A stretch of DNA of 64,000 nucleotides from Patescibacteria group bacterium (GTDB lineage Bacteria; Patescibacteriota; Minisyncoccia; Moranbacterales; UBA2206): NCBI GenBank assembly GCA_022711335.1, contig JAKLFF010000002.1:82988-146987 (forward strand). The letters run 5' to 3'. Position 1 is the first letter of the stretch; every line of letters starts with the position of its first letter. The position numbers and the translations under genes are program-made. This document shows, piece after piece, positions 3,166 through 45,803 of this stretch. The notes under the pieces are model-generated. The model searched no databases, had not been told where the DNA came from, and worked only from the letters and a program-made list of their open reading frames with translations.

Positions 3166-3210
3166 GATACCTGCCTGCCGGCAGGCAGGTATCCACTGAG
3201 CTACAAGGAC
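3166..3210 (-). pseudogene. tRNA 5'-half fragment (21 nt, nearly identical to the 5' end of the adjacent tRNA-Arg) fused to a 28-bp perfect palindrome
   Basis: The minus strand reads GTCCTTGTAGCTCAGTGGATA and then CCTGCCTGCCGGCAGGCAGGTATC. The palindrome GATACCTGCCTGCCGGCAGGCAGGTATC occupies 3166-3193. The intact tRNA begins about 50 nt further on. Confidence 0.6.
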
Positions 3211-3241: not shown

Positions 3242-4078
3242 TTACAAATCCGCCTTTTTCGCTTTTATTTTTTCTCCAAAAAATTTACTTCCCAAAATTT
3301 CAAAATTTTTAGTCAGATCCGTTGAATAAAAAAAATTTTTACGCTTTTTCGAAAGTTTTTTTTCTATCTCCGGATGCTTTTTGAGATATTTTTTCAGTTT
3401 TTTTCCTATTATTTTTGATTCGGAAATTATTTTTATATTCTTGCCGGTTATTTTTCTAATCTTTTTTTCCAAAATTCCATAATGGGTGCAACCTAGAATC
3501 AGCGTGTCTATTTTCTTGCTGGTTAGCGGTTTTAGATATTTTTTTAAAACTGCATTCGTAGATTTTTCATCCTGCTCTCCTATTTCTACAATTTTAACCA
3601 GAAGCGGACAGGCTTTCTGGAATGCTTTTATTTCCTGATTTACTTTTCGAAGCTCTCTTACAAAAGCTTCCGATTCCACTGTTCTTTCGGTAGCAATAAT
3701 TCCTACTCTTTTATTTTTAGTTTTGGAGGCGGCAATTTCCGCTGCCGGGATAAGAACTCCCAACACTTTTCTATCAGAGTAACATTTGGGAATATATTCC
3801 TGTTGGATTCGGCGTAATGCTTCGCTCGAGGCAGTATTGCAAGCTAAAATAATCAAACCGCAATTTTTATTAACAAGAAAATTAATTGCTTGTTTTGCAA
3901 ATCTATATATAGCCTCTCTCGGTTTGGTTCCGTAAGGCACACGCGCGCTGTCGCCCAGATATACATAATTATATTCCGGCAAATCTTTCACGATTCCCCG
4001 CATTACGCTCAAACCGCCAAAACCCGAGTCGAATATTCCGATTGATTTATTTCTTAGCATAAATTGCAACTTATACAT
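3242..4078 (-). CDS. murI: Glutamate racemase
   Basis: Carries the motifs IGIFDSGFGGLSV, LACNTAS and LGCTHYG. Length 278 aa. Confidence 0.88.
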   Translation of the reverse strand: MYKLQFMLRNKSIGIFDSGFGGLSVMRGIVKDLPEYNYVYLGDSARVPYGTKPREAIYRFAKQAINFLVNKNCGLIILACNTASSEALRRIQQEYIPKCYSDRKVLGVLIPAAEIAASKTKNKRVGIIATERTVESEAFVRELRKVNQEIKAFQKACPLLVKIVEIGEQDEKSTNAVLKKYLKPLTSKKIDTLILGCTHYGILEKKIRKITGKNIKIISESKIIGKKLKKYLKKHPEIEKKLSKKRKNFFYSTDLTKNFEILGSKFFGEKIKAKKADL

Positions 4079-4097: not shown

Positions 4098-6275
4098 ATG
4101 ATACATTTGGATACCCCTCTTAAAAACATTTCTAAAATCACCCCTAAATACGCCAAAGTTTTGGAAAAAATGGGCCTCGTTACTGTCCAGGATTTTTTGT
4201 TGTATTTCCCTTTCCGCTATGATGATTTTTCAAAAACCGTGGAATTGGGTCAGAATTATCTGGGTGAAACTATAACGGTCGAAGGAACAATTATAAAAGC
4301 CAAGAATATCAGAATTTTCAGGCGAAAAATGACAATCACGGAAATTGTCATTCAAGATAAAAACAACACCCCGTTAAAAACAGTTTGGTTTAATCAGCCC
4401 TATATTTTAGAAAATTTAAAAGAGGGCGAGTCAATCAGATTGTCCGGAAAATTGGCAATCGATAAAAAGATTTTTTCCATGGCTAATCCCGCCTGGGAAA
4501 AAGCTTCGCGCGATGCGACCAATACTGGAAGACTGGTCCCAGTTTACAGCGAAACTGCCGGCATTTCTTCCAAGTGGATCCGCTGGCAGATAAAGCCGCT
4601 TCTTCGATTTGCCAAAGATATTCCGGATATTTTACCAGAAGAAACAAGAAAAAAATTTAATCTCTATGATCTCCGCACAGCCATAACCCAGATTCATTTT
4701 CCGGATTCCCGCGAAAAACTGGTACGTGCCCAAAAAAGAATGGCTTTTCAAGAAATGTTTTTGGTCCAGCTCAAATCTTTGCAAGTTAAAAAACAATGGG
4801 AGAAAAATAACTCTATTGATATCAAATTCGATGAGAAATTAATCAAGGAATTTGTAGAAAAACTTCCATTCAAATTGACTAACGCGCAAAGAAAAGCCTC
4901 TTTTGAAATTCTAAAAGACCTCGAAAAATCAAAGCCGATGAACCGGCTGCTTGAAGGCGACGTCGGATCGGGAAAAACAGTCGTCGCGGCTATCTCCACG
5001 CTACAATCTATCTCGGCAGGTTATCAAGTAGCCATTATGGCGCCGACAGAAGTCTTGGCGCGGCAGCACTTTGAAAGTTTTTGCAAGTTATTTGAGAATT
5101 ACGGAATAAACATAGCCCTGTTGACAAATTCTTACCAAGAGATTAACAATTTTCAATTTTCAATTTTCAATTTTCAATCAATTTTCAATGACAAAATTTT
5201 AAAAAATAAAAAAAATAGCAGAGAATATTTATTAAAAAGTACAGCAGATGGAAAAATAAATTTAATAGTAGGAACACATGCTCTTATTCAAAAAGACGTA
5301 AGATTCAAGAATTTGGCTTTAATTATTATCGACGAACAGCATCGCTTCGGAGTGGCGCAACGTGCAACTTTGCAACAAGAAACGATGAGTATAAAAGACC
5401 CCGTAAAGTCGCCTAACGGCGACCACGGGGCAAGCGGCGAGATTAAAACTATCTCCCATCTTCTCACTATGACTGCTACGCCTATCCCGAGAACTTTAGC
5501 CATCGCTTTTTTTGGCAGCCTGGGTCTTTCAATTCTTGACGAAATGCCTAAAAACCGAAAGCCGATTGTCACTAAAATTGTCCCGCCCTCTGCCAGAAAT
5601 CAAAATTATAATTTCATCCGGCAGGAAATTGGATCCGGACGGCAGGTTTTTGTCATTTTCCCGCTAATTGAAGAATCAAAGGCTCTCTCGGAAGTGAAAG
5701 CGGCCGCAGAAGAATATAAAAAACTGCAGGATATATTTCCGGATTTTGAAATCGGACTTTTGCATGGACGAATGAAGCCAAAAGAAAAAGAAGAAACTAT
5801 GCAATTTTTTAAAGAGCAAAAAACTAAAATCCTTGTTTCCACTTCTGTTATTGAAGTCGGCATTGATATCCCGAACGCCACAGTTATGATCATTGAAAAT
5901 GCCGAAAGATTCGGGCTTTCCCAGCTTCATCAATTCCGCGGCCGTGTTGGCCGGGGCGAGCATCAGTCGTATTGTTTCCTTTTCACTGAAAGTAACACTC
6001 AAAAATCCATTGAAAGACTAAAAGCCCTTGAAAAAACCAATGACGGATTCGAGATCTCCAAAATCGATCTGGAACTGCGCGGTCCCGGACAATTTTTCGG
6101 CACAATTCAATCCGGCCTTCCAGACATCACCATGGAGAATCTGAGCAATGTGAAACTCATTAAATTCGCCCGCGAGGAAGCCACTAATTTGTTAAAAGTT
6201 GACCCCCGACTAAAAAAGCACCCGCTTTTGGCAGATGCTCTTTTGAGATTTTCAGAGAAGATTCACTTGGAATGA
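4098..6275 (+). CDS. recG: ATP-dependent DNA helicase RecG
   Basis: Has a wedge/OB N-terminal region, helicase motif I GDVGSGKT, motif II DEQHRFG, TATPIPRT and the downstream RecG signature. It also carries two internal insertions (features 5147-5190 and 5399-5430). Confidence 0.9.
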   Translation: MIHLDTPLKNISKITPKYAKVLEKMGLVTVQDFLLYFPFRYDDFSKTVELGQNYLGETITVEGTIIKAKNIRIFRRKMTITEIVIQDKNNTPLKTVWFNQPYILENLKEGESIRLSGKLAIDKKIFSMANPAWEKASRDATNTGRLVPVYSETAGISSKWIRWQIKPLLRFAKDIPDILPEETRKKFNLYDLRTAITQIHFPDSREKLVRAQKRMAFQEMFLVQLKSLQVKKQWEKNNSIDIKFDEKLIKEFVEKLPFKLTNAQRKASFEILKDLEKSKPMNRLLEGDVGSGKTVVAAISTLQSISAGYQVAIMAPTEVLARQHFESFCKLFENYGINIALLTNSYQEINNFQFSIFNFQSIFNDKILKNKKNSREYLLKSTADGKINLIVGTHALIQKDVRFKNLALIIIDEQHRFGVAQRATLQQETMSIKDPVKSPNGDHGASGEIKTISHLLTMTATPIPRTLAIAFFGSLGLSILDEMPKNRKPIVTKIVPPSARNQNYNFIRQEIGSGRQVFVIFPLIEESKALSEVKAAAEEYKKLQDIFPDFEIGLLHGRMKPKEKEETMQFFKEQKTKILVSTSVIEVGIDIPNATVMIIENAERFGLSQLHQFRGRVGRGEHQSYCFLFTESNTQKSIERLKALEKTNDGFEISKIDLELRGPGQFFGTIQSGLPDITMENLSNVKLIKFAREEATNLLKVDPRLKKHPLLADALLRFSEKIHLE
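5147..5190. repeat. Microsatellite (AATTTTC)n of about 6 units inside the recG reading frame
   Basis: caattttcaattttcaattttcaattttcaatcaattttcaatg encodes NNFQFSIFNFQSIFN, in-frame between helicase motifs I and II. Confidence 0.8.
5399..5430. repeat. 32-bp palindromic element inserted in-frame in recG
   Basis: CCCCGTAAAGTCGCCTAACGGCGACCACGGGG encodes PVKSPNGDHGA. It reappears in reverse orientation at 36089-36121 as ccccgtggtcgccgttgaggcgactttacgggg. Confidence 0.75.
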
Positions 6276-7474
6276 TTCTCTATTGCTTTTTCATATACCA
6301 CCAGCATTTTTTTGGCGCAAACTGACGCCGTGAAATTTTCTCTGGCAATTCGCGCAGATTCTTCACCGGTTTTTTCCCTGAGTTTTTTATCCAAAATAAG
6401 TTTTGTGATCATATAGGCAAATTCCTTTTCTCCGGTTACGCAAGTCAGAAATCCGTTTCTGTTGTTTTGGACGAGACTAATCACGCCTGTCGCGCAGACA
6501 GCCACAACCGGAAGCCCCATATACATAGCCTCCGTAAGAACCATCCCTTGAGTTTCTGACTTAGAACCATAAACAAAAATATCTCCAGCCGCGTAGCAGT
6601 CTTTTATCTCCGATCTCGGAATTATTCCGGAAAAAACGACCTGCTCATAAATTCCATTGTCTTTGCAATATTTTTTAAGCTCCGGAAGGAGATATCCGTC
6701 TCCGGAAACCAAAAATTTCACATTTTTTCTTTCTTTGAGTATTTCCCTCACCGAGCGAAAAACAAATTCAATATTTTTTTCCGCCGTAAGCCGCGTTGCC
6801 AGGAACAAAAGAACTTCATTCTCTTTTATTCCATATTTATCACGAGCTTTTTTCCTGTCGGGATTTTTGAATTCTTCCTCGATTACTCCGGTAGGCACCA
6901 CATAGATTTCTTTTTTCACCCTGTTAAATACGCCTTCGGCGTCCCCGCCTTGCGGGGATTTAACAGGATGAACTCCCCAATTTTTGAGAATCGGAATGAC
7001 TGAATCTGTGGGAACCACGACCGCATCCGCCTGATTGGCAAATTTAACTGCTTTCTTGATCATATAGCCGGCAACAAATTTTTTTGGCAGAAACGGAACA
7101 AAATTCGCATAATAATCATAAAGAGTGTGCCAGGTAAAGACCAGCGGAACTTTTTTCCTTTTTGCCCACTTTCGGGCCGCTGATCCTAGAAGATTTGGAT
7201 GCTGGGAGTGGATTACATCGATTTTCAATTCGTTTAAAATTTTGCTAATTTTCCTCGAATATGGAATAACCAAAGGAAATTTTATTTTTATTTCAAGATT
7301 AATGGATGGGTAGCGGAAAATATTCGGATCTTTATCTGCATAGCCCGGAAAGTGCGGCGCGAAAATATATACAGTATGGCCAAGTTTTTCAAATTCCCTC
7401 CGAAAAGTTTCAATTGATGTCGAAACGCCATAGGGATTAGGAAGATAATTGTTCGTAAAAATTGCAATATTCAC
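6263..7474 (-). CDS. Glycosyltransferase family 4 (GT-B fold)
   Basis: Has the N-terminal IAIFTNNYLPNPYGVSTS motif and a C-terminal EXXXXXXXE-like region typical of GT4. The start is ambiguous. The ORF track uses TTG at 7507, but I favour GTG at 7474, which gives MNIAIF and directly abuts the element terminus. Confidence 0.75.
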   Translation of the reverse strand: MNIAIFTNNYLPNPYGVSTSIETFRREFEKLGHTVYIFAPHFPGYADKDPNIFRYPSINLEIKIKFPLVIPYSRKISKILNELKIDVIHSQHPNLLGSAARKWAKRKKVPLVFTWHTLYDYYANFVPFLPKKFVAGYMIKKAVKFANQADAVVVPTDSVIPILKNWGVHPVKSPQGGDAEGVFNRVKKEIYVVPTGVIEEEFKNPDRKKARDKYGIKENEVLLFLATRLTAEKNIEFVFRSVREILKERKNVKFLVSGDGYLLPELKKYCKDNGIYEQVVFSGIIPRSEIKDCYAAGDIFVYGSKSETQGMVLTEAMYMGLPVVAVCATGVISLVQNNRNGFLTCVTGEKEFAYMITKLILDKKLREKTGEESARIARENFTASVCAKKMLVVYEKAIENHSK

Positions 7475-7604
7475 CCGGTAGTGAAATTTTGACTGGCCTT
7501 CCGTCAATAAAGCATAGATGGCTCAGAAAAAATTTTATTAAAAATTATTCTAAATAAAAATTTTTGTAACCCGGGTTCTTTAATGTCAAAATTCTACTAC
7601 CGGG
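7474..7604. mobile_element. Inverted-repeat (MITE-like) element copy 1, 131 bp with 20-bp terminal inverted repeats and a 4-bp target duplication TTCA
   Basis: The left end is cccggtagtgaaattttgac at 7474-7493 and the right end is gtcaaaattctactaccggg at 7585-7604. ttca at 7470-7473 is repeated at 7605-8608 region start, namely 7605-7608. The interior is AT-rich. The glycosyltransferase GTG start overlaps the element terminus. Confidence 0.7.
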
Positions 7605-9414: not shown

Positions 9415-9485
9415 GTAGCCCTGTTTACAGGATGCCACCCGGAGGGTGGTCAGCCTCTGGCTGAAAAACCGGAAAGTTTTAAAAT
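9415..9485 (-). repeat. Copy W: degenerate tRNA-Glu 3'-half copy carrying the 30-nt insert
   Basis: gtagcc, then an 18-nt T-arm deletion, then cctgtttacaggatg, ccacccggagggtggtcagcctctggctga, aaaaccggaaagttttaaaat. It is a 66-bp perfect direct repeat of 10600-10665. Confidence 0.7.
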
Positions 9486-9671
9486 AGTAGACTACTTGCT
9501 CAATAGTTGGAACTAAGTTATCAAAAAATTGAAAGCGTGGCAAGAATTGAAAATAATTGCAACGGCGGATTTTATTAATTAAACCATATATTTTTCTTTA
9601 AATATAGGGAGTGAATCAAAAAATGTTCTTTGTAGAATTATATCTGCGACGGCCTGTTTGGTATGGAGCAA

Positions 9672-10575: not shown

Positions 10576-10665
10576 TGTAGCCCTAAGGGGAATCGAACCC
10601 CTGTTTACAGGATGCCACCCGGAGGGTGGTCAGCCTCTGGCTGAAAAACCGGAAAGTTTTAAAAT
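10576..10665 (-). repeat. Copy Z: tRNA-Glu 3' half carrying the 30-nt insert in the anticodon, preceded by a non-tRNA 17-mer
   Basis: The minus strand reads ATTTTAAAACTTTCCGG, TTTT, [TCAGCCAGAGGCTGACCACCCTCCGGGTGG], CATCCTGTAAACAGGGGTTCGATTCCCCTTAGGGCTACA. It ends immediately before the intact tRNA. Confidence 0.75.
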
Positions 10666-10667
10666 TG

Positions 10668-10739
10668 TAGCCCTAAGGGGAATCGAACCCCTGTTTACAG
10701 GATGAAAACCTGCTGTCCTAACCACTAGACGATAGGGCC
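10668..10739 (-). tRNA. tRNA-Glu (anticodon TTC), intact
   Basis: The reverse complement reads GGCCCTATCGTCTAGTGGTTAGGACAGCAGGTTTTCATCCTGTAAACAGGGGTTCGATTCCCCTTAGGGCTA. It folds as a full cloverleaf with anticodon loop TTTTCAT. Confidence 0.85.
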
Positions 10740-10816
10740 AGTAATTATTCTTCTATATAATAGTATTTTTTAATTTTACTTTTAATGACGTAAACATAAT
10801 TCATAAATTTAAAGTT

Positions 10817-10896
10817 CCTGTTTACAGGATGCCACCCGGAGGGTGGTCAGCCTCTGGCTGAAAAACCTGCTGTCCTAACCACTAGACGATAGGGCC
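10817..10896 (-). pseudogene. Copy X: tRNA-Glu 5' half, the 30-nt insert and the anticodon 3' stem, truncated before the T-arm
   Basis: The minus strand reads GGCCCTATCGTCTAGTGGTTAGGACAGCAGG, TTTT, the same 30-nt insert, CATCCTGTAAACAGG, and then unrelated AT-rich sequence. Confidence 0.75.
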
Positions 10897-27555: not shown

Positions 27556-27700
27556 GCCATGCCTACCTCTCGATAAAATGCAATTTACCCCGCACCCAGA
27601 ATACTCCGAGCGCAAACTCGGAGATGAATGGTTCCAAGCGCGAAGCGAATTGCTCCAATGCCCGTGGCGGTCGCCCGTGGGTACGGGGTTTCCGGCATCT
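27556..27700 (-). other. GC-rich structured intergenic element, either a 3' UTR or a small RNA, ending in a U-tract
   Basis: Local GC is far above the surroundings. It contains the hairpins ccgagcgcaaactcgg and gcccgtggcggtcgcccgtggg, with gaggtaggcatggcttgcctctg followed by tttcattttgtttttttt on the minus strand. Confidence 0.3.
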
Positions 27701-28800: not shown

Positions 28801-31608
28801 TTAAAGGTAGCGCCCTGTCCAGCTTCTTTTGCACTTTTTGAGCCCCGAAGGATTTCCTTCATAAACTATCTCTCCGCCCCTGTTTCCGCCTTCCGGCCCA
28901 AGATCAATCACCCAATCAGAATTTTTAATCACATCTGGATTATGTTCGACAACCAAAACCGTATTGCCTTTTTCGCAAAGCGCATTGAGAACTCCCAGGA
29001 GTTTTTTAACATCCTCAAAGTGAAGCCCGATAGTCGGCTCATCTAAAATATACAAGGTTTTTCCGGCAGAACGCCGCGAAAGCTCCGTCGCCAATTTTAT
29101 CCTCTGTGCCTCTCCTCCGGATAAATTCGTTGCGCTCTGCCCCAGCTTGAGATAGCCCAGGCCTACCTCTTCCAAAGTCTTGAGTTTTTCAAAAATCAAC
29201 GGGGATTTCTTGAAAAAATGGAGCGCGTAAGAAATGCTCATATCGAGAACTTGAGCGATGTTCACTCCTTGATATTCAATATCAAGCGTTTTCTGATTAT
29301 ATCTGGTTCCGCCGCAAGTCTCACAGCGCACATACATGTCAGGAAGCATGTGCATTTCTATTTTTTTGGTCCCGTCCCCCTGGCAATCCTCGCAACGTCC
29401 GCCGCGGATATTGAAACTGAAACGGCTTGAGTCATATCCGCTATTTTTTGATTCGGGAGTTTGAGAAAACAGCTCCCGAATATGGGAAAATACTCCGGTA
29501 TACGTCGCTGCGTTGGATCTGGGAGTTCTTCCGATCGGAGACTGGTTGATGCTGATTACTTTGCCTATGTTTTCAATGCCCCTTATTTCCTTATGTTCTC
29601 CCGGAATATCTTTTGATTTATAAAAATATCTGGAAAGCGCTTTGGACAAAATGTCAGCCACTAAGGTCGATTTTCCTGATCCGGAAAGTCCGGTAATAGC
29701 CACAAAATTTCCCAGCGGTATTTTCACATTGATATTTTTGAGATTATGCTCCGTTGCTCCCCTTATTTCCAAAAACTTCCCGCTTCCTTTGCTCGGTTTC
29801 TTTTTTTTGTTATTTTTTTCCTTCTCAGTCAGGAATTTTGCCGTAAGCGTTCTGGATTTAAGAAGTTTTTTTATGTTTCCCGAAAAAATAATTTCTCCTC
29901 CAGATGTTCCCGCTCCCGGTCCCATATCAATAATCCAATCTGCCTGGCGGATTATATCTTCGTCATGTTCAACAACAATCAGAGAATTGCCGGTGTTTTT
30001 CAATTTAATCAAAGTATTTATCAGTTTCTTGGTGTCGCGGCTATGCAAGCCGATCGAAGGCTCATCGAGAACATAGATAATTCCGGAAAGTTCCGAATCC
30101 AGCTGGGTTGCCAGGCGGATTCTCTGCGCCTCTCCTCCTGAAATCGAATCTGCTCCCCGGGACAGCGATAAATAATCAAGGCCGACATTTTTGAGAGATT
30201 GCGCCCTCAAAATCATTTCTTTTATAAGCGGCGCGACTATTTCTTTTTTGGACTGGCTCAGCTTATTTTTTTCAACTTCTTTGAGAAATGCGATAAAATT
30301 ATCCGCATCCATATTAGAAACATCATCAATTGATTTTTCTGAAACTAAAATAGATAAATAATCCTTTTTCAGCCTTTTCCCGAGGCATTCCGGACAAATC
30401 TTTCTTATCATATATCTTTCCAGGTCACTTCGAACTCCAAGCGTCATGGATTCATCATATTTCTTCTTAAGCGCTGGTATTACCCCCGAAAACTTTCCGG
30501 CCGGCAAGGCAGGATCGTCGCATCCGTAAAAAATCATGTCTAAGTGCTTTCGACTCATTTTTTTGACTGGCACATTTACTGAAAATCCGTGCCTTTCGCC
30601 CAAAGTTTTCAAAATTCCTCCGCTGCCATTTAATCCGCTTTTTCCATTCGATTTTCCCCAGGCTAAAATTGCTCCTTCCGCTATCGTCAGTTTTTTATTG
30701 GGAACCAGAAGATCTTCATCTATCTCTCTTATCATCCCTAACCCAGAACATTTTATACAAGCCCCTTCCGGATTGTTAAAAGAAAAATTTTTCGGCGTTA
30801 CATCGGAAATTTTAAAATAGCATTGGTTGCAGCAAAAATCCCGATTATATAACTTTTCCGTATCATTATCAATTATTACCGACATAAAGCCTTTTCCCAA
30901 ACGAAAAGCTGTTTCCACGGAATCTAAAATTCTTTCTTTATCAGGATTATTTCTTTTGAAAGTCAGCCGGTCGATTACAATTTCAATCGCATTTTCTCCG
31001 ATATCTTTGGCTAGATTTAGAGCTTCCTGGACAGTTATTATTTTTCCGGAAAATCGCACTCTGGCATATCCCAGATGATTGACATTGCGAAGAATTTCAG
31101 CAGTATTCTTTTCTTTCTCTAAAATTCTTGAGAGGATCACTAGCTGCGTATTATCCGGCATTTTTAAAATCTCTTCCAGTATTTCCCGGTTGCTGACTCT
31201 TTTGAGAACATTTCCGCAATTTGGGCAATAGGGCGTTCCGACCTTGGAAAATAAAACGCGGAGATAGTCATATATCTCCGTCAGTGTTCCTACGGTAGAA
31301 CGAGGGCTTTTTGTCACACTTTTTTGGTCTATGGAAATAGTCGGGCTTAAATTTTCAATTTTGTCCACATCCGGCTTGGCCGAAACGTCCATAAATTGGA
31401 GTGCATAGCTCGACATGCCTTCAAGATAGCGGCGGTTGCCTTCCGCATAAATCACGTCGAAGGCCAGCGAAGATTTCCCTGATCCGGAAAGTCCGGTGAT
31501 GACTACTAATTTATTCTTAGGGATAGAAACGTTGATGTTTTTAAGATTGTTCGTACGAGCTCCGTAAACGTTAATGCTTTCCTTGGATTTTAAAATATTT
31601 TTAGGCAT
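28801..31608 (-). CDS. uvrA: Excinuclease ABC subunit A (UvrA), canonical paralogue
   Basis: Has two ABC ATPase modules ([12 protein letters not shown] and [11 protein letters not shown]), [12 protein letters not shown] twice and zinc-finger Cys clusters. The start was chosen at [18 protein letters not shown]. Confidence 0.9.
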
Positions 31609-31708
31609 ATGCGTAAAGAAGCAGCTTTTTAACAAAATGCGCTACTAAAGAAGCATTTTACATTAGTTTTAGAGATTTGTAAAGAAGGCTGTCAGCTTAA
31701 ATTCTGAG

Positions 31709-33043
31709 CTAGTCCAGTATGCTTTTTTTTCTTAATTTTTTATGATAAGTTATTGCAAACCGATGCGCCTCATCACGCACTTGTTCAATTATAGTTTTTG
31801 GAATTTCTGGAACGGTTCCAAAAGAATAAATGTCTAATTTTTTTCGAGACAGTCCTTTGGCCACGGCTACAAGCGGAATTTCCAGATGGAAGTTGCGAAG
31901 AATTTTTCGAGCCATGTTTAAATGCCCTTTTCCGCCGTCAAGGATTATAAGATTAGGTTTCGGCCAGTTATTTTTGAGTCTTCGCGCCAACACCTCTTCC
32001 ATAGCGCCAACATCATTGGCGCCGAAAACAGTTTTAATCCTGAATTTCCGGTATTGGGATTTATTTGGCTTTATTTCGCCTTCCGAATTATCAAAAACCG
32101 CCATCGATCCAACAGAATATTTCCCAGAGATATTGGATATATCATAACCCTCTACTCGGAATTTTTCTTTTTTGTTATATGTTTCATGTTCTATGTTATA
32201 TGACATGAGCGCTATGTCTTGTATGTGCTGCAGCGCAAAAATTTTATTCCTCACCTCTCCTGCTTTTTCAAATTCATGCTTCCGGCTATATTCTTCCATC
32301 TCTTTTTTCATTCTGCTAATCAAACTTTTTTTCTTTCCTTCCAAAATCATCTGGATTCCCCGAATATTTTTCTGATAATCTTCTCTTGTAATTGCCCCAT
32401 CATACGGCCCGGGGCACAATCCTATTTGATAATCCAAGCAGCCCTTTTCCGTTTTTTGCGGCCTGGCGTGATATGGAAAAATTTTCCTTAATATTTTTAG
32501 AGCTGTTTCAATTTGGTGTTTTGACGTGTACGGACCGTAGATTTTTTTATATTGTATTTTTTGTAGGGACAGACCTTGTGTCTGTCCTTTCCGGGCGGAT
32601 GCAAGATCCGCCCCTACGTTTTTATCTAAATCCGTCTTCCTCATCACCACAAATCTTGGCCATTCTTCTTTTGTAACAGCCACGTAACAAAATGACTTAT
32701 CATCTTTCCCGTCTACATTGCATTTCGGCTGGAATTTCTTGATCAGTTCCTGCTCCAAAATATAGGCTTCGAGAACCGTGTCGGTTTTTCTGATTTCCAA
32801 GTCTTTCACTTCAGAAATGAACATTTCAATGGGCCGATTTCCATATCCCATTGATCGTAGGGACAGACCTTGTGTCTGTCCTTTCCGGGCGGATACAAGA
32901 TCCACCCCTACAAAATACGACCCGACCCGATCTTTCAAGCTCCCCGCCTTCCCCACATACAAAATCTTCCCGAATATATCCTTAAAAATATACACGCCAG
33001 GCGAAAATGGAAGATATTTGAGTTTTTTATTCAGATTTAACAT
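31709..33043 (-). CDS. uvrC: Excinuclease ABC subunit C (UvrC), short form lacking the C-terminal HhH, with two in-frame repeat insertions
   Basis: Has the GIY-YIG domain YLPFSPGVYIFKD...LYVGKAGSLKDRVGSYF, a UVR-like region and the C-terminal RNase H-like endonuclease region EGYDISNISG. The inserted peptides VGVDLVSARKGQTQGLSLRSM and VGADLASARKGQTQGLSLQKI derive from the 55-bp repeats. Confidence 0.8.
   Translation of the reverse strand: MLNLNKKLKYLPFSPGVYIFKDIFGKILYVGKAGSLKDRVGSYFVGVDLVSARKGQTQGLSLRSMGYGNRPIEMFISEVKDLEIRKTDTVLEAYILEQELIKKFQPKCNVDGKDDKSFCYVAVTKEEWPRFVVMRKTDLDKNVGADLASARKGQTQGLSLQKIQYKKIYGPYTSKHQIETALKILRKIFPYHARPQKTEKGCLDYQIGLCPGPYDGAITREDYQKNIRGIQMILEGKKKSLISRMKKEMEEYSRKHEFEKAGEVRNKIFALQHIQDIALMSYNIEHETYNKKEKFRVEGYDISNISGKYSVGSMAVFDNSEGEIKPNKSQYRKFRIKTVFGANDVGAMEEVLARRLKNNWPKPNLIILDGGKGHLNMARKILRNFHLEIPLVAVAKGLSRKKLDIYSFGTVPEIPKTIIEQVRDEAHRFAITYHKKLRKKSILD
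32563..32617. repeat. 55-bp double-hairpin repeat, copy 1, in-frame within uvrC
   Basis: GTAGGGACAGACCTTGTGTCTGTCCTTTCCGGGCGGATGCAAGATCCGCCCCTAC. Confidence 0.8.
32857..32911. repeat. 55-bp double-hairpin repeat, copy 2, in-frame within the uvrC GIY-YIG region
   Basis: GTAGGGACAGACCTTGTGTCTGTCCTTTCCGGGCGGATACAAGATCCACCCCTAC. Confidence 0.8.
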
Positions 33044-36000
33044 TATTTTTTATTTTCAAAAATTTCCTCAAATACTTCCCCGTCCAGCTTTCTTTGTGAT
33101 ATTTGACTACTTCTTCCGGCGTGCCGGTTACCACAATTTTTCCGCCGTTTTCTCCGCCTTCCGGTCCAAGGTCGATTATCCAATCGGCAGTTTTTATCAC
33201 ATCCATATTATGCTCGATTACCACTACGCTATTTCCTGAATCAACCAGCCTATTTAGCACATTTAATAATTTTTTTATATCGTCGAAATGAAGTCCGGTG
33301 GTCGGCTCGTCAAGAATATACAGTGTATCGCCGGTAGCACGTCTCGCTAGTTCTGTCGCCAGTTTTATTCTCTGCGCTTCTCCGCCAGAAAGAGTTGTGG
33401 CCGATTGGCCGAGTTTGATATATCCCAGCCCAACTTCATCCAAGATTTTAAGCTTAGCATAGATTTCCGGATAATTTTCAAAAAATATTTTTCCTTCTGC
33501 CACTGTCATTTCAAGAACTTCAGCAATATTTTTGCCCTTATATTTCACTTGGAGCGTTTCGCTATTATATCTCTTTCCGTGGCAGACATCGCACGGCAGA
33601 TAAACATCCGGCATAAATTGCATTTCGATCTTGAGATATCCATCGCCCTTGCAATTATCGCACCGGCCTCCATTCACGTTGAACGAAAATCTTCCCGGCC
33701 CATACCCTTTTCCTTTGGCATCACGCGTAGCAGAAAACAATTCTCTTATCGGCGTAAATAATCCTGTATAAGTAGCTGGATTGGAGCGTGGAGTGCGTCC
33801 GATCGGCGACTGGTCGATCATTATGACTTTATTAATATGATGCATTCCGATAATCTCACTGTGGCTCCCCGGCCTGTCCAAAGAACGCATGATTTTGGAA
33901 GCCAAGGATTTATAAAGAACATCTTCAACCAAAGTGGATTTCCCGGAGCCGGAAACTCCAGTAACACAAGTAAAAACTTTCAGGGGAAATTCAGCCGTAA
34001 TATTTTTCAAATTATTTTCGCGCGCTCCGCGAACAGTTATCCATTTTTTGTTCTTGATTGGACGCCGGAAAGCCGGAATTTCTATTTTCAAATCACCCCG
34101 AAGATAGGCTGCTGTCAAAGATTTTTTGTTTTTTATAACTTCTTTTGGAGAACCTTCGACAATAATTTTTCCGCCTAAATTTCCAGCGCCGAGTCCAATA
34201 TCAACAATGTGATCAGCGGCGCGAATTGTCTCTTCATCATGTTCGACAACAATCACGCTATTGCCAACATTTTTAAGTCTCAAAAGGGTTTCCAATAATT
34301 TAGAATTATCCCTAGCATGAAGCCCAACCGATGGTTCATCTAAAATATATAATACTCCGACTAGTTGCGATCCGATCTGCGAAGCCAAGCGGATTCTTTG
34401 CGTTTCTCCTCCGGCCAAAGTGTTGGCCGCGCGTCCTAAAGTTAGATATCCTAATCCGACATTTTCCAAAAAACCCAGCCGATTTTGAATTTCCTTCAAA
34501 ATTCTTCCAGCAATTATTTCTTCACGCTTGTTTATTTTAAGTTCTTTAAAAAATTTTAAAGTTAGATCAACGCTGTCTCTTGACAGCTCATATATATTTT
34601 TATTCCCAACTGTAACTAATAGCGCTTCTTTTTTATATCTCGACCCATGGCAAACCGAACAGGGGTTTTGCGACATATATTTTTCAATATCTTGCCGCAC
34701 TGCTTCTGAATCCGTTTTTTTATAACGATCTTCAAGATAGCCGATAACACCTCTCCATTCCATATTATATTTCCAAACTGAACCGCTTTTTGACCGCAAA
34801 GAAACAGCGACATCCTCATAATCATATTCGTAGGTCAATTCACCTTTATTTTTATTATTATCATCGGTTTCCGGCCTGCCATGCATCAATAAATTAAAAT
34901 CATCGCTCGATAAATCGCGAAGGCGTATATTTTCAGAAATATGAAAATGATTGGCTACGGATCGCAAAATTGTTCCCTGCCAATTATTCTTTTTATAGCT
35001 CCACGGCATTAGTCCCCCTTGAGATATGGTTTTATTTATGTCCGGAGCCACCAGATCCGGATCAATTTCCCGCTTTGTGCCCAAGCCCTCGCAAGCCGGG
35101 CAAGCGCCATAGGGGCTATTAAAGGAGAAGAGTCTCGATTCGAGCGCTGGAAAAGTTATTTCGTGGATCGGACAGGATAGGTTTTGATTGAAAATTAGAT
35201 CTTCTTTTTTTTGATTTTTTGCCCTACTCAGTAAATTTTGCTCTGCAAAATTATTTTTCTTACTAGAAAAATACTCAACAGGATGAATTTTCACTAAGCC
35301 TTGCGAAAGTTTCAACGCCTTTTCCACATCCTCAAAAATTCTGGAAATATTCCGATCACTGATTTCCACTTCATCAACAACTATATCTATGTCGTGCTTT
35401 TTATACCGTTCTAACTTTATTTTCTCGCTGATTTTAGAATCCAGTTCGATTTTTTTTCCATTCACATAGGCTCCGGAAAATCCGCGCCGGAACATTTCAC
35501 TCATCATCGTGGAATATTCACCTTTCCGACTGCGAACAACCGGAGACAAAATTTCTATCTTACAATTATTTTGTAGGGACAGGCCTTGTGCCTGTCCTTT
35601 TTGGGCGGATACAAGATCCGCCCCTACATTTTTCCCCGTACATAAATCTAAAATCCTATCCACAATTTCATCCACTGACAATTTTTTTATTTCCTGATTG
35701 CATATGGGACAGTGCGGAATTCCGATTTTAGAATAAAGAAGCCGGAGATAATCATGGATTTCTGTCACTGTTCCCACAGTCGATCTGGGATTATGTGAAG
35801 CTGATTTTTGATCAATGGAAATGGCCGGACTCAAACCCTGAATCAGATCCACATCCGGTTTGTCCATCTGGCCCAAAAATTGGCGAGCATAAGATGACAA
35901 ACTTTCTAAATATCTTCTCTGCCCTTCAGCAAAAATGGTATCGAAAGCCAGCGTGCTCTTTCCCGAACCGCTTATGCCTGTAAAAACAATAAACTTGTTA

Positions 36001-36071
36001 CGAGGTAAGTTTAAATTTATATTTTTTAGGTTGTGCTCCCTGGCACCTCGTATAATAATTTCTTCTTCCAT
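33027..36071 (-). CDS. UvrA paralogue (UvrA2, 1014 aa) carrying an in-frame repeat insertion
   Basis: Has the UvrA architecture with two ABC modules ([23 protein letters not shown]), Zn-finger cysteines and ABC signature motifs. It contains the insert GKNVGADLVSAQKGQAQGLSLQ, which comes from the 55-bp repeat. Confidence 0.85.
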   Translation of the reverse strand: MEEEIIIRGAREHNLKNINLNLPRNKFIVFTGISGSGKSTLAFDTIFAEGQRRYLESLSSYARQFLGQMDKPDVDLIQGLSPAISIDQKSASHNPRSTVGTVTEIHDYLRLLYSKIGIPHCPICNQEIKKLSVDEIVDRILDLCTGKNVGADLVSAQKGQAQGLSLQNNCKIEILSPVVRSRKGEYSTMMSEMFRRGFSGAYVNGKKIELDSKISEKIKLERYKKHDIDIVVDEVEISDRNISRIFEDVEKALKLSQGLVKIHPVEYFSSKKNNFAEQNLLSRAKNQKKEDLIFNQNLSCPIHEITFPALESRLFSFNSPYGACPACEGLGTKREIDPDLVAPDINKTISQGGLMPWSYKKNNWQGTILRSVANHFHISENIRLRDLSSDDFNLLMHGRPETDDNNKNKGELTYEYDYEDVAVSLRSKSGSVWKYNMEWRGVIGYLEDRYKKTDSEAVRQDIEKYMSQNPCSVCHGSRYKKEALLVTVGNKNIYELSRDSVDLTLKFFKELKINKREEIIAGRILKEIQNRLGFLENVGLGYLTLGRAANTLAGGETQRIRLASQIGSQLVGVLYILDEPSVGLHARDNSKLLETLLRLKNVGNSVIVVEHDEETIRAADHIVDIGLGAGNLGGKIIVEGSPKEVIKNKKSLTAAYLRGDLKIEIPAFRRPIKNKKWITVRGARENNLKNITAEFPLKVFTCVTGVSGSGKSTLVEDVLYKSLASKIMRSLDRPGSHSEIIGMHHINKVIMIDQSPIGRTPRSNPATYTGLFTPIRELFSATRDAKGKGYGPGRFSFNVNGGRCDNCKGDGYLKIEMQFMPDVYLPCDVCHGKRYNSETLQVKYKGKNIAEVLEMTVAEGKIFFENYPEIYAKLKILDEVGLGYIKLGQSATTLSGGEAQRIKLATELARRATGDTLYILDEPTTGLHFDDIKKLLNVLNRLVDSGNSVVVIEHNMDVIKTADWIIDLGPEGGENGGKIVVTGTPEEVVKYHKESWTGKYLRKFLKIKNNVKSE
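35573..35627. repeat. 55-bp double-hairpin repeat, copy 3, in-frame within uvrA2
   Basis: GTAGGGACAGGCCTTGTGCCTGTCCTTTTTGGGCGGATACAAGATCCGCCCCTAC. Confidence 0.8.
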
Positions 36072-36088
36072 ATTTTTTAAGTTGCCTG

Positions 36089-36165
36089 CCCCGTGGTCGC
36101 CGTTGAGGCGACTTTACGGGGTGTTCTCTCGCACCTCGTATAATTATTTCGTCCATATTCATTCG
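36089..36165. repeat. 32-bp palindromic element, copy 2, followed by a duplicated uvrA2 start region (pseudo-start)
   Basis: ccccgtggtcgccgttgaggcgactttacgggg at 36089-36121. At 36128-36165, ...cgcacctcgtataattatttcgtccat repeats ...gcacctcgtataataatttcttcttccat at 36040-36071, which is the uvrA2 start codon and first 12 codons, with a few mismatches. Confidence 0.7.
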
Positions 36166-36291: not shown

Positions 36292-36954
36292 CTATAAGCT
36301 AACATATTTCACCGGTAAAACCTTCTTATACACTCCAGCAACAAGAATAGAGTCTGACTCGTGGATAAAAATCGGCTGATGGAAAGTGTTGGTCGAGTGC
36401 GGGAAAAGACCGATGATATCATCACTGACTTTTTTATATTTTTTAATCGTTGCCATGCCATTTATCACCGCCACCACGATTTTTCCCTCCAGCTCGTCTT
36501 TTCCTTCATATTTTTCAAAAATCACGTAGTCACCGTCATTGATGCTTGATTTGTCCATAGAATCCCCAAGCGCTTTTACGGCAAAGAGATCAGCCGGTTT
36601 GGCATTTCGAAAAAGCGCCTTTGAAATTTGAAGAAATCCATCCACATTGTCTTCCGCATAAGCCAGCGCGTCTCCGCAGGAAGCCAGGCCATAAACCGGA
36701 ATAGAAAAAATATTTTTGAAATTGGAAAAGCTTTGATTTTTAATCAGATAAATTTTTTTGTCATCATCGCGCTTGATTAAGTCTTTTCTTTCTAGAGCTT
36801 CTATTACTTGCATAATTGATTTCAGACAATCTTTCGATCCTCGTTCAGACAAAAATTTATGCAGTCCATAGCTGGTCGGATTTTCTCTTTTTTGATCAAT
36901 GTACTCCTTGATGATTTCAAGGATGCCGTTTTGTTTCGATGTTAATTTTTGCAT
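36292..36954 (-). CDS. lexA: LexA repressor (S24 peptidase, SOS regulator)
   Basis: Has an N-terminal winged-helix region (MQKLTSKQNGILEIIKEY...), the cleavage-site region GLASCGDALAY and catalytic GDSM...K (ALGDSMDKSSINDGD...ATIKKY). The ORF-track start at 37137 reads through an upstream palindromic element and is not credible. Confidence 0.82.
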   Translation of the reverse strand: MQKLTSKQNGILEIIKEYIDQKRENPTSYGLHKFLSERGSKDCLKSIMQVIEALERKDLIKRDDDKKIYLIKNQSFSNFKNIFSIPVYGLASCGDALAYAEDNVDGFLQISKALFRNAKPADLFAVKALGDSMDKSSINDGDYVIFEKYEGKDELEGKIVVAVINGMATIKKYKKVSDDIIGLFPHSTNTFHQPIFIHESDSILVAGVYKKVLPVKYVSL

Positions 36955-36974
36955 AATTTTATCAAGCACGAATA

Positions 36975-37110
36975 ACCAAATCCGAAATTCGAAACAAATT
37001 ATAATTTTCAAAATTATAAATTCAAAACTATTTCGCCTGCCTGCCGGCAAGAATTTTATGTCATTTGAATTTTGATATTGTTTCGAATTTCGCGCTTCGG
37101 ATTTCGAATT
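36975..37110. repeat. Imperfect palindrome of about 135 bp centred on the GC core cgcctgcctgccggcaag, in the lexA 5' region
   Basis: The left arm is ccgaaattcgaaacaaattataattttcaaaattataaattcaaaac. The right arm is gtcatttgaattttgatattgtttcgaatttcgcgcttcggatttcgaattt. TTCGAAT-type heptads occur on both arms. Confidence 0.55.
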
Positions 37111-37241
37111 TAAAAGTTTACAGTGGTATTCTATCACTTATATACTACCACTGTCAACCGCCTGCTGTGGATAACTCTAAAACAAAATCCCGTCTTGCGG
37201 GATTTTGGCTTTATTCTTTATTCTTAATTCTTGCTTCTTTT

Positions 37242-38858: not shown

Positions 38859-38960
38859 CCAAGCTATGAAAGAACTATTAAACTATTGAAACTTCTGATT
38901 ATACACCAAAACCGTCAAAAAGTCAATCGTTAATTATCTACAATTCGCCTGCCTGCCGGT

Positions 38961-39005
38961 AGGTAGGTATATTCGTAAAGATTCGTAATTCGTAGAGAAC
39001 AACAA
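38961..39005. repeat. Direct repeat 2 of AGATTCGTAATTCGTAGAGAA..., preceded by a GC palindrome cctgcctgccggtaggtagg
   Basis: cgcctgcctgccggtaggtaggtatattcgtaaagattcgtaattcgtagagaacaacaaaaaaaca. Confidence 0.6.
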
Positions 39006-39284: not shown

Positions 39285-41408
39285 TTATTTTATTTGCAAC
39301 TTCCTCAGCTCCCCTATTTCATCCCGAATTATCGCCGCTTTTTCAAATTCCAGATTTCTGACTGCGTCTTTCATTTCTTTTTCCTTCTGTTTCACATATC
39401 CCGCAATATCTTCCAATGATTCCAGCTCCGAAAAATCCCGGATCACCTGCGGATTGATTTCATGATCTACAATAGACTGGATTTTCTTTTTGATGGTCTT
39501 GGGAGTAATATGATTCTTTCTATTATATTCCATCTGCAGCTTTCTTCTTCTTTCAGTTTCCGCAATCGCCCGCTTCATAGAACCGGTAATTTCATCGGCG
39601 TATAAAATTACTTTCCCGCTGACATTTCGAGCTGCCCGCCCGATGGTTTGAATAAGTGATGTTTCGCTTCGTAAAAATCCTTCCTTATCAGCATCAAGTA
39701 TGGCAACTAGCGACACTTCCGGAAGATCCAGTCCTTCGCGAAGCAGATTCACTCCGACCAAAACATCAAACTCTCCTCGCCGCAATTTTTCTAATATTCT
39801 AATCCGATCTAGCGTGTCCACCCCGCTGTGCAGATATTCCGCCTTGATTTTCGACTCTTTTAAGAAATCAGAAAGGTCTTCAGCCATTTTTTTAGTGAGC
39901 GTGGTTATCAGCACTCTTTCTTTCTTTTTCATTACTTCCTTAATTTCTTCCGTCACGTCCTTTACTTGTCCACGAGTCGGCTTGATTTCCAGTTCCGGAT
40001 CAATGAGTCCTGTAGGACGAATAATCTGTTCGACTACATTATTCCCCTTCTCCCTCCGGGAGAAGGTGGCCCGCTTAGCGAGACGGATGAGGGAGGAGTT
40101 CTGTGTTTTATCCCTCTCCTTCCCTTCGGGCATCCTCTCCCTAAGGGAGAGGAGGATTTTTTTAGATTTTTCCAATTCATACTTCCCGGGAGTCGCCGAT
40201 GTAAAAACTACTTGATTTATCTTCTGCTCAAATTCACTAAATTTGAGGGGACGATTGTCATAAGCTGAAGGAAGCCTAAAGCCATTGTCTATAAGAGCTG
40301 TTTTCCGAGCATGATCTCCATTATACATTCCATTTAACTGCGGAATAGTTACATGCGACTCATCTATTACTATTAGAAAGTCCTCCGAAAAATAGTCGAT
40401 AAGAGCATACGGCGGTTCGCCTTTTTTTCTGTCAGTTAAATATAAAGAGTAATTTTCAATTCCATTACAATATCCGATTTCGCGCATCATCTCCAGATCT
40501 TGCCTGGTTCTTCTAGAAAGTCTCTCGGCTTCCAAAATTTTATTGTTATCCTGCAAATATTTGAGCTGTTCTTCCAATTCATTCTCTATTTTCTTAAGCG
40601 CTTCTTCCATCACCGGTTCCGGCACCACGAAATGCTTGGCCGGATAAATCAAAGTTTTTTCCAGCTTTCCCAGCTCTTCGCCTGTCAGAAAATCATACTC
40701 TTGGATTTTAATAATCCTATCTCCTTCAATATTTATTCTAGTCACCACTTCTCTGCCTGGAGTCATAATTTCTAAAGTGTTTCCAGTGAAACGGAATTTT
40801 CCGCGGCTTAATAAATCGCTCCGGTTGTATTGCATGTCAATCAATCTTTTTATCGTCTTTTCACGATCAAATCCTAAGGCGAGGCCTTTGGATTCCAAAG
40901 GCCTCGCCTTAGGATTGACTTTTAATTCCAGCGCGATATCCCGATAATATTCCGGCGATCCCAAGCCATAGATGCAAGAAACTGAAGCGCAGATGATTAC
41001 ATCCCGGCGCGAAAGTAATGCCGCCGTGGAAGCATGGCGCAACCGGTCAATTTCTTCATTAATCTGGGCTTCTTTTTCAATGTAAGTATCAGTTGAAGCA
41101 ATGTAGGCTTCCGGCTGATAATAGTCATAATAAGAAACAAAATACTCCACGGCGTTTTTTGGGAAAAAAGTGCGAAACTCCTGAGCCAGCTGCGCCGCGA
41201 GAGTCTTGTTGGGTGCGATTACCAAAGTCGGTTTTTGCACCTTTTCAATCACATTGGCAATGGTAAAAGTCTTTCCTGACCCTGTCACGCCCAAAAGCGT
41301 CTGAAATTTCTGTCCGGACCGAAGACCTTCCGCCAGTTTTAAAATAGCCTGCGGTTGGTCGCCTTCAGGCTTAAATTTTGAATTTATTTTAAATTTATTA
41401 ACATTCAT
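39285..41408 (-). CDS. uvrB: Excinuclease ABC subunit B (UvrB) with an in-frame insert of about 40 aa
   Basis: Has Walker [11 protein letters not shown], helicase motifs, the UvrB beta-hairpin region and the C-terminal UVR domain. The insert [42 protein letters not shown] lies between SATPG...ELE and [10 protein letters not shown]. Confidence 0.9.
40044..40156. repeat. Hairpin element G, copy 1 (about 113 bp), in-frame inside uvrB
   Basis: ccccttctccctccgggagaaggtggcccgcttagcgagacggatgagggaggag...cctctccctaagggagaggagg shares about 50 nt with 39228-39279. Confidence 0.7.
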
Positions 41409-45780: not shown

Positions 45781-45803
45781 ATTTTCCTGCCTACCGGTAG
45801 GCA
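45781..45803. repeat. Degenerate copy of the GC palindrome family (cctgcctaccggtaggcatgg)
   Basis: Related to the palindromes at 3166-3193, 37033-37050 and 38944-38965. Confidence 0.5.

Follow-up and report, generated by a model that had tools for sequence, protein, structure and literature searches.

What is a GC-rich nested palindrome doing in the reading frame of a conserved DNA-repair helicase? The question is raised by a 64,000-nucleotide stretch of a Patescibacteria genome (contig JAKLFF010000002.1, positions 82,988 to 146,987; here called the window), in which an earlier note, made from the sequence alone, described a 32-bp palindrome at positions 5399-5430 of recG and a second copy, in reverse complement and with one extra loop base, at 36089-36121. 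Both are present in the window as described. The first, CCCCGTAAAGTCGCCTAACGGCGACCACGGGG, lies on the plus strand and has no match in 100 dinucleotide-preserving shuffles; it lies between DEQHRFG and TATPIPRT of a protein that is RecG by its Pfam domains (RecG_wedge, DEAD, Helicase_C, and RecG_dom3_C) and that is 100% identical to a Candidatus Moranbacteria protein named RecG. The palindrome does stand out in base composition, although its GC content is 69% (against about 39% for the window) and not the approximately 60% first given. As argued below, it is probably a copy of a family of 30- to 39-nt, non-autonomous, selfish hairpins of the same kind as repetitive extragenic palindromic (REP) sequences and Rickettsia palindromic elements (RPEs).

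The limits of the unit emerge from an alignment with the 120 closest RecG proteins. The peptide is in frame, as proposed, but the true insert measures 36 nt and 12 amino acids (PVKSPNGDHGAS, between ...ETMSIKD and GEIK...) and not 32 nt and 11 amino acids, as it includes a CAAG tail. The empty recG site in locus L005, in which a covariance model built from copies of the unit in unrelated genomes (model R1) finds no unit, reads TCA GAT|GGA AAA, and the filled sites read GA|CCCCGT...ACGGGGCAAG|Y GG, such that what was once the last base of GAY has become that of a new Ser codon (AGC in the window and AGT in L001 to L003 and L136). Comparison of filled with empty sites reveals no target-site duplication, and the ends of the unit are confirmed by units that abut head to tail in L002, L029, L049, and L093. 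Between these ends, the recG unit (copy A) consists of a CCCCGT outer stem, an AAA bulge, a GTCGCC-TAAC-GGCGAC inner hairpin, a C, the ACGGGG outer stem, and the CAAG tail. Model R1 recognizes exactly two sites in the window, copy A and the second copy (copy B), which have the same stems and are distinguished by a single base in the loop and another in the tail; in single-stranded form, both adopt a nested hairpin (-11.4 kcal/mol and z of -4.4 as DNA; -21.4 kcal/mol and z of -5.9 as RNA). A degenerate relative suggested at about 27652-27680 is not a member of the family: with filters off, R1 is silent there at E values of up to 10, and neither strand of 27652-27688 folds better than shuffled sequence (z of -0.4 to -0.5).

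How widely does the unit occur? The pattern CCCCRTAAARTC-N8-18-ACGGGGCARG, searched in contigs from one genome per species (GTDB collection), identifies at least 118 loci, against about 6 expected by chance (our own estimate from the information content of the pattern and the size of the database); all counts of units, stems, frames, flanks, and hosts across genomes given here are those among the matches listed. Fourteen metagenome loci carry exactly the inner stem of the window, so that the palindrome has copies well beyond its two sites in the window, and the unit is found in assemblies of independent projects (NCBI, JGI, ENA, and Logan). By record title, the hosts include many lineages of the Candidate Phyla Radiation (CPR), namely, Moran-, Yanofsky-, Portnoy-, Harrison-, Falkow-, Kerfeld-, Nomura-, Wolfe-, Woese-, Uhr-, Kaiser-, Vogel-, and Taylorbacteria and Saccharibacteria, as well as metagenome-assembled genomes (MAGs) outside the CPR that are titled WOR-3, Stahlbacteria, Omnitrophota, Thermodesulfovibrionia, Bdellovibrionales, Planctomycetes, and Gammaproteobacteria, these phylum names being record titles and not verified taxonomy. 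Three enterobacterial matches look like an unrelated conserved locus.

The units are 30 to 39 nt long, with lengths clustering at 33, 36, 39, and 30 nt, and follow a single plan: they open with CCCC(G/A)TAAA, close with ACGGGGCARG, and comprise an outer stem of 6 bp, an AAA that faces a single base, an inner stem of 4 to 7 bp with a loop of 3 to 5 nt, and a CARG tail. At least 4 contiguous base pairs form the inner stem in 59 of 112 unique units, compared with 4.6% of shuffles, and the inner stem occurs in 30 different sequences. In an alignment of 110 hits that was fitted to the model (and in which the outer stem was preset by the search pattern), 46 units have AU and 40 have GC as their first inner pair, and the observed covariation score is reached by none of 500 shuffles. 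These patterns indicate that the hairpin structure is under selection, the inner stem being free in sequence yet remaining paired. Flanking positions are constrained at the junctions, with A at -1 in 74% and C or T at +1 in 82% of 121 instances, and only weak preferences farther to the left; paired units are arranged head to tail, and inverted dimers were not seen. A second subfamily has a conserved, non-palindromic interior, GTCGCTNCGCTCC, and is common in the non-CPR MAGs. In MAGs labeled WOR-3 or Stahlbacteria (L030, positions 451-530, and L019, L032, L065, L069, L110, L012, and L104), units of this subfamily sit between short repeated flanks (e.g., CAGACATCAGACAA) as arrays with a 47-nt period, and the 14-nt intervening stretches of L030 are themselves repeated.

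A distribution of this type effectively refutes the idea that the palindrome is of local origin, by templated quasi-palindrome mutation, or is an artefact of assembly. Template switching can create palindromes, and the data are metagenome assemblies, but the same asymmetric unit, complete with AAA bulge and CARG tail, occurs at unrelated loci in independent assemblies (at least 118 family loci in addition to the metagenome loci), and the recG insert is identical in four separate contigs. The searches for an origin or precedent were negative: the pattern has no match in IMG/VR contigs, and blastn finds none in phage genomes; no Rfam family reaches its gathering score on the element in the window, where hits are at chance level (E > 4); and in the searchable literature library the exact sequence strings matched unrelated primers alone, and there was no paper tying CPR or Patescibacteria to REPs, REP-associated tyrosine transposases (RAYTs), or REPINs. 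The hairpin family is apparently undescribed.

The history of the insert can be followed most closely in recG itself. About 110 of the 120 closest RecG orthologues (which are 667 to 886 amino acids long) lack the segment and read ...D-G... without a gap, in keeping with the proposal of the earlier note that it is lineage specific; this does not hold in the simple sense of a single lineage, however, in that the same RecG nucleotide is occupied in at least five separate Moranbacteria lineages. Fitch parsimony on a neighbor-joining tree of the 120 proteins (well-occupied columns only) yields five changes with an empty root state, and the sisters of P0046 and P0102, at distances of 0.07 and 0.12, are without the insert and have identical flanking residues. 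Inserts of different lineages have a common outer stem and tail and differ in their inner stems (GTCGCC/GGCGAC, GTCCG/CGGGC, GTCCG/CGGAC, and TCGCC/GGCGA), with one lineage containing a tandem pair. In a sixth occurrence, L136, the unit is identical to that of the window at 36 of 36 positions and occupies the same nucleotide, in a recG gene with 78.9% nucleotide identity overall and 59% at third positions; the nearest relative of L136 among the 120 proteins, P0023, has no insert. The element is therefore either younger or more constrained than its host gene. Spread by homologous recombination or in long tracts is disfavored, both because the codons flanking the L136 unit differ from those of the window up to the very ends of the element and because the flanks of P0046 and P0113 are protein-identical with and without the insert. 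To judge from the sequences, the distribution argues against simple vertical inheritance of a neutral insert and is consistent either with a conserved master sequence that inserted more than once or with a unit under strong constraint that was precisely lost on several occasions.

Why should one nucleotide be hit repeatedly? In an AlphaFold2 model of RecG (45-sequence alignment, mean pLDDT of 69.7), residues 434-449 form a coil with pLDDT values below 50, located between a helix (419-430) and a strand (454-459), and the Thermotoga maritima RecG structure 1GM5 has an 18-residue gap at this loop; the insertion site is, as modeled, a permissive, disordered surface loop. Unrelated inserts occupy the same loop in P0106 and P0107 (a segment of about 140 amino acids with a PF13366 domain), and the alignment marks the loop between motifs II and III as a general insertion hot spot. 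Other unrelated inserts in this loop were noted in P0027, P0028, P0118, P0050, and P0120, and short SASSPR-like inserts are among them. The Asp codon is the sole NAY codon in the RecG loop of the window, so an A|Y target, a tolerated frame, and a permissive loop together leave essentially one usable recG nucleotide, and the recurrence can be explained without a homing mechanism. Elsewhere in RecG, a second lineage-variable segment (residues ~353-371), FQFSIFNFQSIFNDKILKNKKNS, has an AT-rich tandem heptamer, (TTTTCAA)n, as its coding sequence and is likewise predicted to be disordered, with pLDDT below 50.

Across the family, 57 of 132 instances lie within long open reading frames (ORFs), and units in ORFs of at least 150 amino acids are oriented predominantly in the sense direction (47 sense and 11 antisense). 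Thirty-nine sense units are read in the (D/N/H/Y)PVKS...(D)HGA(S/G) frame, 36 of which have a length that is a multiple of 3, and the other eight are read in a PRKV...RGR frame. The same filter appears among metagenome units with the inner stem of the window, of which the in-frame ones are 36 nt long, compared with 35 or 37 nt for most that lie outside long ORFs. Because intergenic units situated between co-directional genes have no significant orientation bias (19 with and 12 against; P = 0.28), we attribute the sense bias within ORFs to selection on the encoded peptide and reject an intrinsic strand bias of insertion. Host proteins confirmed by Pfam are RecG, UvrA, a PD-(D/E)XK nuclease, MetRS, IleRS, the CCA-adding enzyme, and SecD; TrpRS, the ATP synthase alpha subunit, a YchF-like GTPase, and an RluA-type pseudouridine synthase were recognized by eye. 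UvrA is a recurrent host (L058, L063, L084, L106, L119, P0232, and the window), and RecG of a Harrisonbacteria genome carries the unit at a second insertion site.

The prevalence of one frame (39 of 58 intragenic copies) and the recurrence of its ends, PVKS and HGA(S/G), might suggest that the PVKS..DHGAS peptide is itself a functional module of repair and housekeeping enzymes, such as a modification or interaction motif. We consider this very improbable: what is conserved is a palindrome at the DNA level whose paired bases covary, something that a peptide motif would not call for, and the same DNA occurs outside long ORFs, in the second sense frame, and in antisense. The peptide is hypervariable in its middle part, disorder is predicted for the segment (pLDDT below 50), and the nearest orthologues manage without it.

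Copy B illustrates what happens when a unit lands in a less permissive place. It was described as lying upstream of uvrA2, and near uvrA2 it is, but it interrupts the original 5' coding end of the gene, which is now bypassed by a duplicated start. In L138 (P0129, 80% identity), a conserved leader is directly followed by the start codon (ATGGATGAG..., MDEIIIRGAREHNLKN). The window has this leader too, followed there by ATGGACGAAATAATTATACGAGGTGCGAGAGAACA (36156-36122, minus strand); the encoded peptide, MDEIIIRGAREH, is an N terminus that is also present in orthologues P0124 and P0129. The continuity of the leader and the conservation of this N terminus identify 36156-36122 as the original uvrA2 start, which copy B breaks after the CA of a His codon. 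The present ATG (36069-36071) was made at the junction from the last AT of the continuation of the interrupted gene and the next G, and codons 1-17 of the present ORF are a diverged duplicate of the original start (44 of 50 nt identical, with an extra GAA codon removed). Five of the six substitutions between the two copies are synonymous, and the upstream copy matches the outgroup at four differing sites. No in-frame unit occurs at this N terminus in any of the 120 closest UvrA2 orthologues (944 to 1073 amino acids long). From the sequence context, an insertion in the conserved strand that leads into the Walker A site of UvrA2 would be harmful and would persist only if a duplication, or a patch from a related allele, restored an intact N terminus. 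Two other loci, L058 (~4300-4480) and L119 (~3780-3960), have an N-terminal uvrA segment, a unit, and then a repeated, diverged N-terminal segment, all in frame from the upstream ATG (VIKIRG|unit|FIKIRGARVHNLKN and IKIRGARVH|unit|FIRIRGARVHNLKN, respectively), an architecture like that of 36070-36156 in the window. In the surroundings of copy B, two uvrA paralogues flank uvrC in one minus-strand cluster; the ORF directly upstream of uvrA2 is LexA-like by eye, and in L138, uvrA is preceded upstream, but not immediately, by a gene with a Peptidase_S24 hit.

The fate of copy B also bears on the idea that the unit is an intron-like mini intervening sequence, removed from the transcript such that the protein never contains DPVKSPNGDHGASG. 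Unusual insertions in rRNA genes are a known feature of CPR genomes, and the unit is a discrete, stable hairpin with sharply defined ends. A spliced unit, however, would have no need of the multiple-of-3 lengths and stop-free frames for which intragenic copies are enriched, the frameshifting 37-nt copy in uvrA2 was bypassed by a new start and not tolerated, and no known splicing motif or Rfam family matches, all of which render this explanation even less credible than a peptide module.

To return to the recG palindrome as a selfish hairpin element, its history is probably as follows. Units would insert without target duplication, usually after an A and before a pyrimidine, and the invariant outer stem, bulge, and tail would form the recognition structure of a trans-acting enzyme, with the apical inner stem free to drift as long as its pairing holds. 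Within genes, only some insertions would survive, i.e., those with a multiple-of-3 length, mostly in the PVKS sense frame, that enter a permissive surface loop, and the surviving frame would encode a hydrophilic, Pro/Gly/Ser-rich peptide, (D/N/H/Y)-PVKS...(D)HGA(S/G). In recG, the unit would have entered the single NAY codon (Asp, GA|Y) of the hypervariable loop between motifs II and III and would be carried as a neutral or nearly neutral 12-amino-acid extension that does not serve RecG. By analogy, the moving enzyme could be an HUH/tyrosine single-stranded DNA transposase like RAYT or the TnpA of IS200/IS605. Family membership, unit boundaries, the lack of duplication, covariation, patchy presence among orthologues, the filter on frame and length, and the disordered loop are all direct results of the comparisons; mobility itself is suggested by the distribution of the units.

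Several observations weigh against a mobile, selfish element. No protein family recurs near the loci (clustering of the ORFs within 2.5 kb of the 118 loci listed yielded housekeeping families alone), and queries with the TnpA proteins of IS608, ISDra2, and 2EC2 against the window and 138 loci (1.09 Mb in total) returned no tblastn match below an E value of 0.4 and no hmmsearch match at E values of up to 1. Copy density is low (two in the 64-kb window and usually one per 8-kb locus), and neither a filled/empty polymorphism within one population nor an excision product was seen. The near-invariance of about 20 outer nucleotides across phyla exceeds that of most REP families and could point to a host-level function, as could the 36-of-36 identity of units across diverged recG genes, and the recurrent recG nucleotide could stem from an old insert that was precisely excised or from homing that escaped detection. 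Finally, the spread beyond the CPR leans on the unverified labels of the MAGs concerned.

A host-level function is the substance of a further alternative, in which the hairpin is a beneficial mRNA or DNA signal kept by selection (a protein-binding or processing site, an mRNA stabilizer, or a pause or cruciform site) and the coding frame merely limits where it can sit. Consistent with such a signal, the outer stem, bulge, and tail hardly vary across more than 100 loci of many phyla, with only pairing maintained in the inner stem, the same 36 nt persist in two recG genes despite differences at 41% of their third positions, the hairpin is highly stable as RNA (-21.4 kcal/mol; z of -5.9), and published REPs can act as RNA elements (PMC3733652). 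We nevertheless think it unlikely: close relatives are without the unit at the same site with nothing else changed, the hosts and positions are unrelated (RecG, UvrA, MetRS, IleRS, TrpRS, SecD, the CCA-adding enzyme, and intergenic sites), copies between genes favor neither strand with respect to their neighbors, no Rfam family matches, and a conserved recognition structure is equally to be expected of a mobile element. A bolder form of the selfish-element reading, possible but in our view doubtful, is that of a horizontally spreading, phylum-crossing family of 30- to 39-nt hairpins, moved by a structure-specific enzyme common in CPR and other uncultured bacteria, that would insert at A|Y without duplication, revisit one nucleotide of one gene in separate lineages, and prefer DNA-repair genes (UvrA, RecG, and nucleases), with the insertion at the essential 5' end of uvrA bypassed by a duplicated start in three genomes.

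To which of the known elements does the recG unit come closest? In-frame palindromic selfish DNA is known in Rickettsia and in some proteobacterial REP families. The units of the REP superfamilies (GTAG and CGTC) resemble it in being GC-rich, imperfect palindromes of 20 to 40 nt with a short unpaired tail, dispersed as singletons or in groups, that sometimes lie wholly within ORFs and encode short peptides, and the similarity of the host genes is striking: REPs occur inside genes in several species (Di Nocera et al. 2013; PMC3733652), with intragenic REPs or RPEs reported in uvrA, uvrB, recB, and aminoacyl-tRNA synthetase and pseudouridine synthase genes (PMC3733652). Rickettsia RPE-4 and RPE-6 have been equated with CGTC-type REPs, which have no dedicated transposase (PMC3733652). 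REPs are defined, however, by a conserved, unpaired GTAG or CGTC at one end (PMC3733652), whereas the recG unit has no such tag and its CGT is paired in the outer stem. Whereas REPs have a single stem of 8 to 13 bp, the recG family has a two-tier hairpin (6-bp outer stem, AAA bulge, and hypervariable inner stem); whereas REPs are high-copy, mostly extragenic, and often in inverted pairs, the recG family is frequently intragenic (57 of 132, as above), is found in head-to-tail tandems with no inverted dimers (REPINs) seen, and occurs mainly in CPR/Patescibacteria. As for its host genes, the apparent link to DNA repair matches the published observations on intragenic REPs and is an association only.

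RPEs, which Ogata et al. are said to have described in 2000 and of which RPE-1 is reportedly some 100 to 150 bp long and confined to Rickettsia, are alike in being selfish palindromic repeats in frame within genes for conserved proteins, with one frame and orientation predominating, a peptide that forms a surface loop compatible with function, and presence or absence among related species. Compared by description only, the recG unit differs in its length of 30 to 39 nt and its occurrence across many phyla; given a Candidatus Moranbacteria host and a family mainly in CPR, it is not the same lineage-restricted family. REPIN-RAYT and IS200/IS605 systems also combine a hairpin recognition structure, a lack of target duplication, short specific adjoining sequence, and short non-autonomous units. 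A genome with a REPIN-RAYT system has one copy of the RAYT gene, as a rule with the repeats on either side of it. Set against the traits of IS200/IS605 elements, which have subterminal hairpins and insert strand-specifically 3' of a tetra- or pentanucleotide, the unit inserts without duplication, forms a single hairpin, and has no intergenic orientation bias among the matches listed, but its apparent target is just A|Y, and no RAYT or TnpA homologue was found in the 1.09 Mb searched. REPINs are reported to be vertically inherited, whereas the recG family, by record title, crosses phyla. The cyanobacterial SDR4 to SDR6 elements, attributed to Elhai et al. in 2008, are reportedly dispersed, hairpin-forming inserts of 21 to 27 nt whose mobilizing mechanism is said to be unknown and which reportedly reside inside other repeats, occasionally in genes, and in some cases within short tandem repeats; they are similarly tiny and dispersed, and their tandem repeat setting resembles that of the WOR-3/Stahlbacteria copies flanked by 14-nt repeats, but by description they are set apart by sequence, size, and host phyla. 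The recG unit works like an intragenic REP or RPE, yet it is not filed in those named families. Three other classes of element were rejected: miniature inverted-repeat transposable elements (no duplication at the recG site, flanks showing just A at -1 and Y at +1, and a unit of 30 to 39 nt compared with 50 to 500 bp), CRISPR repeats (copies that are singletons or directly abutting tandems among the matches listed, and L030 spacers of 14 nt that are repeated), and intrinsic terminators (a unit inside ORFs that is followed by CARG and then coding sequence, with no T run).

The window contains further palindromes (Table 1), and the suggestion that in-frame repeat families occur in more than one repair gene is borne out by those in uvrC, uvrA2, and uvrB. 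A different family, of about 74 nt and comprising two adjacent GC-rich hairpins (GGACAGACC..GGTCTGTCC and GGGCGGAT..ATCCGCCC), encodes ..VGADLVSARKGQTQGLSL.. in frame at two places in UvrC and at one in UvrA2, and it corresponds to what the earlier note counted as its first in-frame family. In uvrB, GC-rich perfect hairpins (e.g., the 41-nt palindrome CCTAAGGCGAGGCCTTTGG.TTCCAAAGGCCTCGCCTTAGG) coincide with odd stretches of peptide, and another lies just downstream. Together, uvrA, uvrB, and uvrC span about 15% of the window and contain about 9 of its roughly 25 strong GC-rich hairpin sites. A GT4 glycosyltransferase gene harbors a clean 54-nt (18-amino-acid) in-frame insert, VHPVKSPQGGDAEGVFNR, a nested palindrome (CCTGTTAAAT..ATTTAACAGG) with two inner hairpins that is present in the window and the close relative L004 and missing from the orthologues in L005, L002, and L003; by base count, identity to the recG unit is 67% over the first 27 nt, which encode the same PVKSP, and R1 is silent on this insert. 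A small palindrome family, CCTGCCTGCCGGCAGGCAGGTAT, has three to four copies. At 483 nt, the tmRNA gene, a match to the full Rfam model of 374 positions, probably contains inserted segments. A 72-nt sequence occurs three times and is overlapped by a 39-nt repeat in two identical copies, which matches the 3' part of a tRNA gene; these tRNA-linked repeats could be attachment-site remnants of an integrated element.

Table 1. Positions of the hairpin units, their host genes, and other repeats and genes in the window
Feature	Position	Strand	Length	Remarks
Element copy A	5399..5434	+	36 nt	Splits recG Asp434 codon GA/C; read as PVKSPNGDHGAS; covariance model E 3e-9
Host gene recG	4098..6275	+	725 aa	Insert between helicase motif II (DEQH) and motif III (TATPIPRT)
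Second variable RecG segment	5146-5174			Encodes FQFSIFNFQSIFNDKILKNKKNS
Element copy B	36085..36121	-	37 nt	Loop TCAAC for TAAC; tail CAGG; frame shift; covariance model E 5e-9
Original uvrA2 5' coding end	36122..36156	-		ATG GAC GAA ATA ATT ATA CGA GGT GCG AGA GAA CA = MDEIIIRGAREH; out of frame
Continuation of interrupted uvrA2	36070..36084	-		C AAC TTA AAA AAT AT = ..NLKNI; CAACTTAAAAAATAT
Present uvrA2 ORF	33027..36071	-	1014 aa	Pfam UvrA_inter, UvrA_DNA-bind
uvrA	28801..31635	-		
uvrC	31709..33043	-		
LexA-like ORF	36292..37137			Directly upstream of uvrA2
~74-nt family, uvrC	32544-32617; 32838-32911	-	~74 nt	
~74-nt family, uvrA2	35554-35627	-	~74 nt	
uvrB	39285..41408	-		
uvrB hairpins	40046-40066; 40133-40153; 40873-40913			
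Hairpin downstream of uvrB	39230-39269			
GT4 glycosyltransferase gene	6263..7507			
GT4 insert	6920-6973	-	54 nt	
CCTGCCTGCCGGCAGGCAGGTAT family	3170-3192; 38948-38970; 45786-45808; 37036-37058			Last copy partial
tmRNA gene	58330-58812	+	483 nt	
72-nt repeat	9419-9490; 10599-10670; 10816-10887		72 nt	
39-nt repeat	10576-10614; 10666-10704		39 nt	
tRNA gene	10668-10739	-		

The phenomenon that the recG palindrome represents is more than 20 years old, and the family is a new one of a known kind of element; its most notable aspects are its breadth within the CPR, the recurrent use of a single recG nucleotide, the sharp definition of the unit, and the bypassed uvrA start. An analogous family is now shown in CPR bacteria, where hairpin inserts are one visible source of the length variation among the closest orthologues of RecG and UvrA, and in annotation such inserts are to be taken neither for functional domains nor for lineage-specific adaptations of repair enzymes. 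With its sharp ends, simple covariance model, and many filled and empty orthologous sites, the family is suited to finding the enzyme that moves tag-less, REP-like hairpins and to asking why such elements accumulate in uvrA, uvrB, uvrC, and recG. Should it be true that the units spread horizontally, they would offer a tractable system for how REP-like elements without a RAYT move and how they come to favor repair genes.

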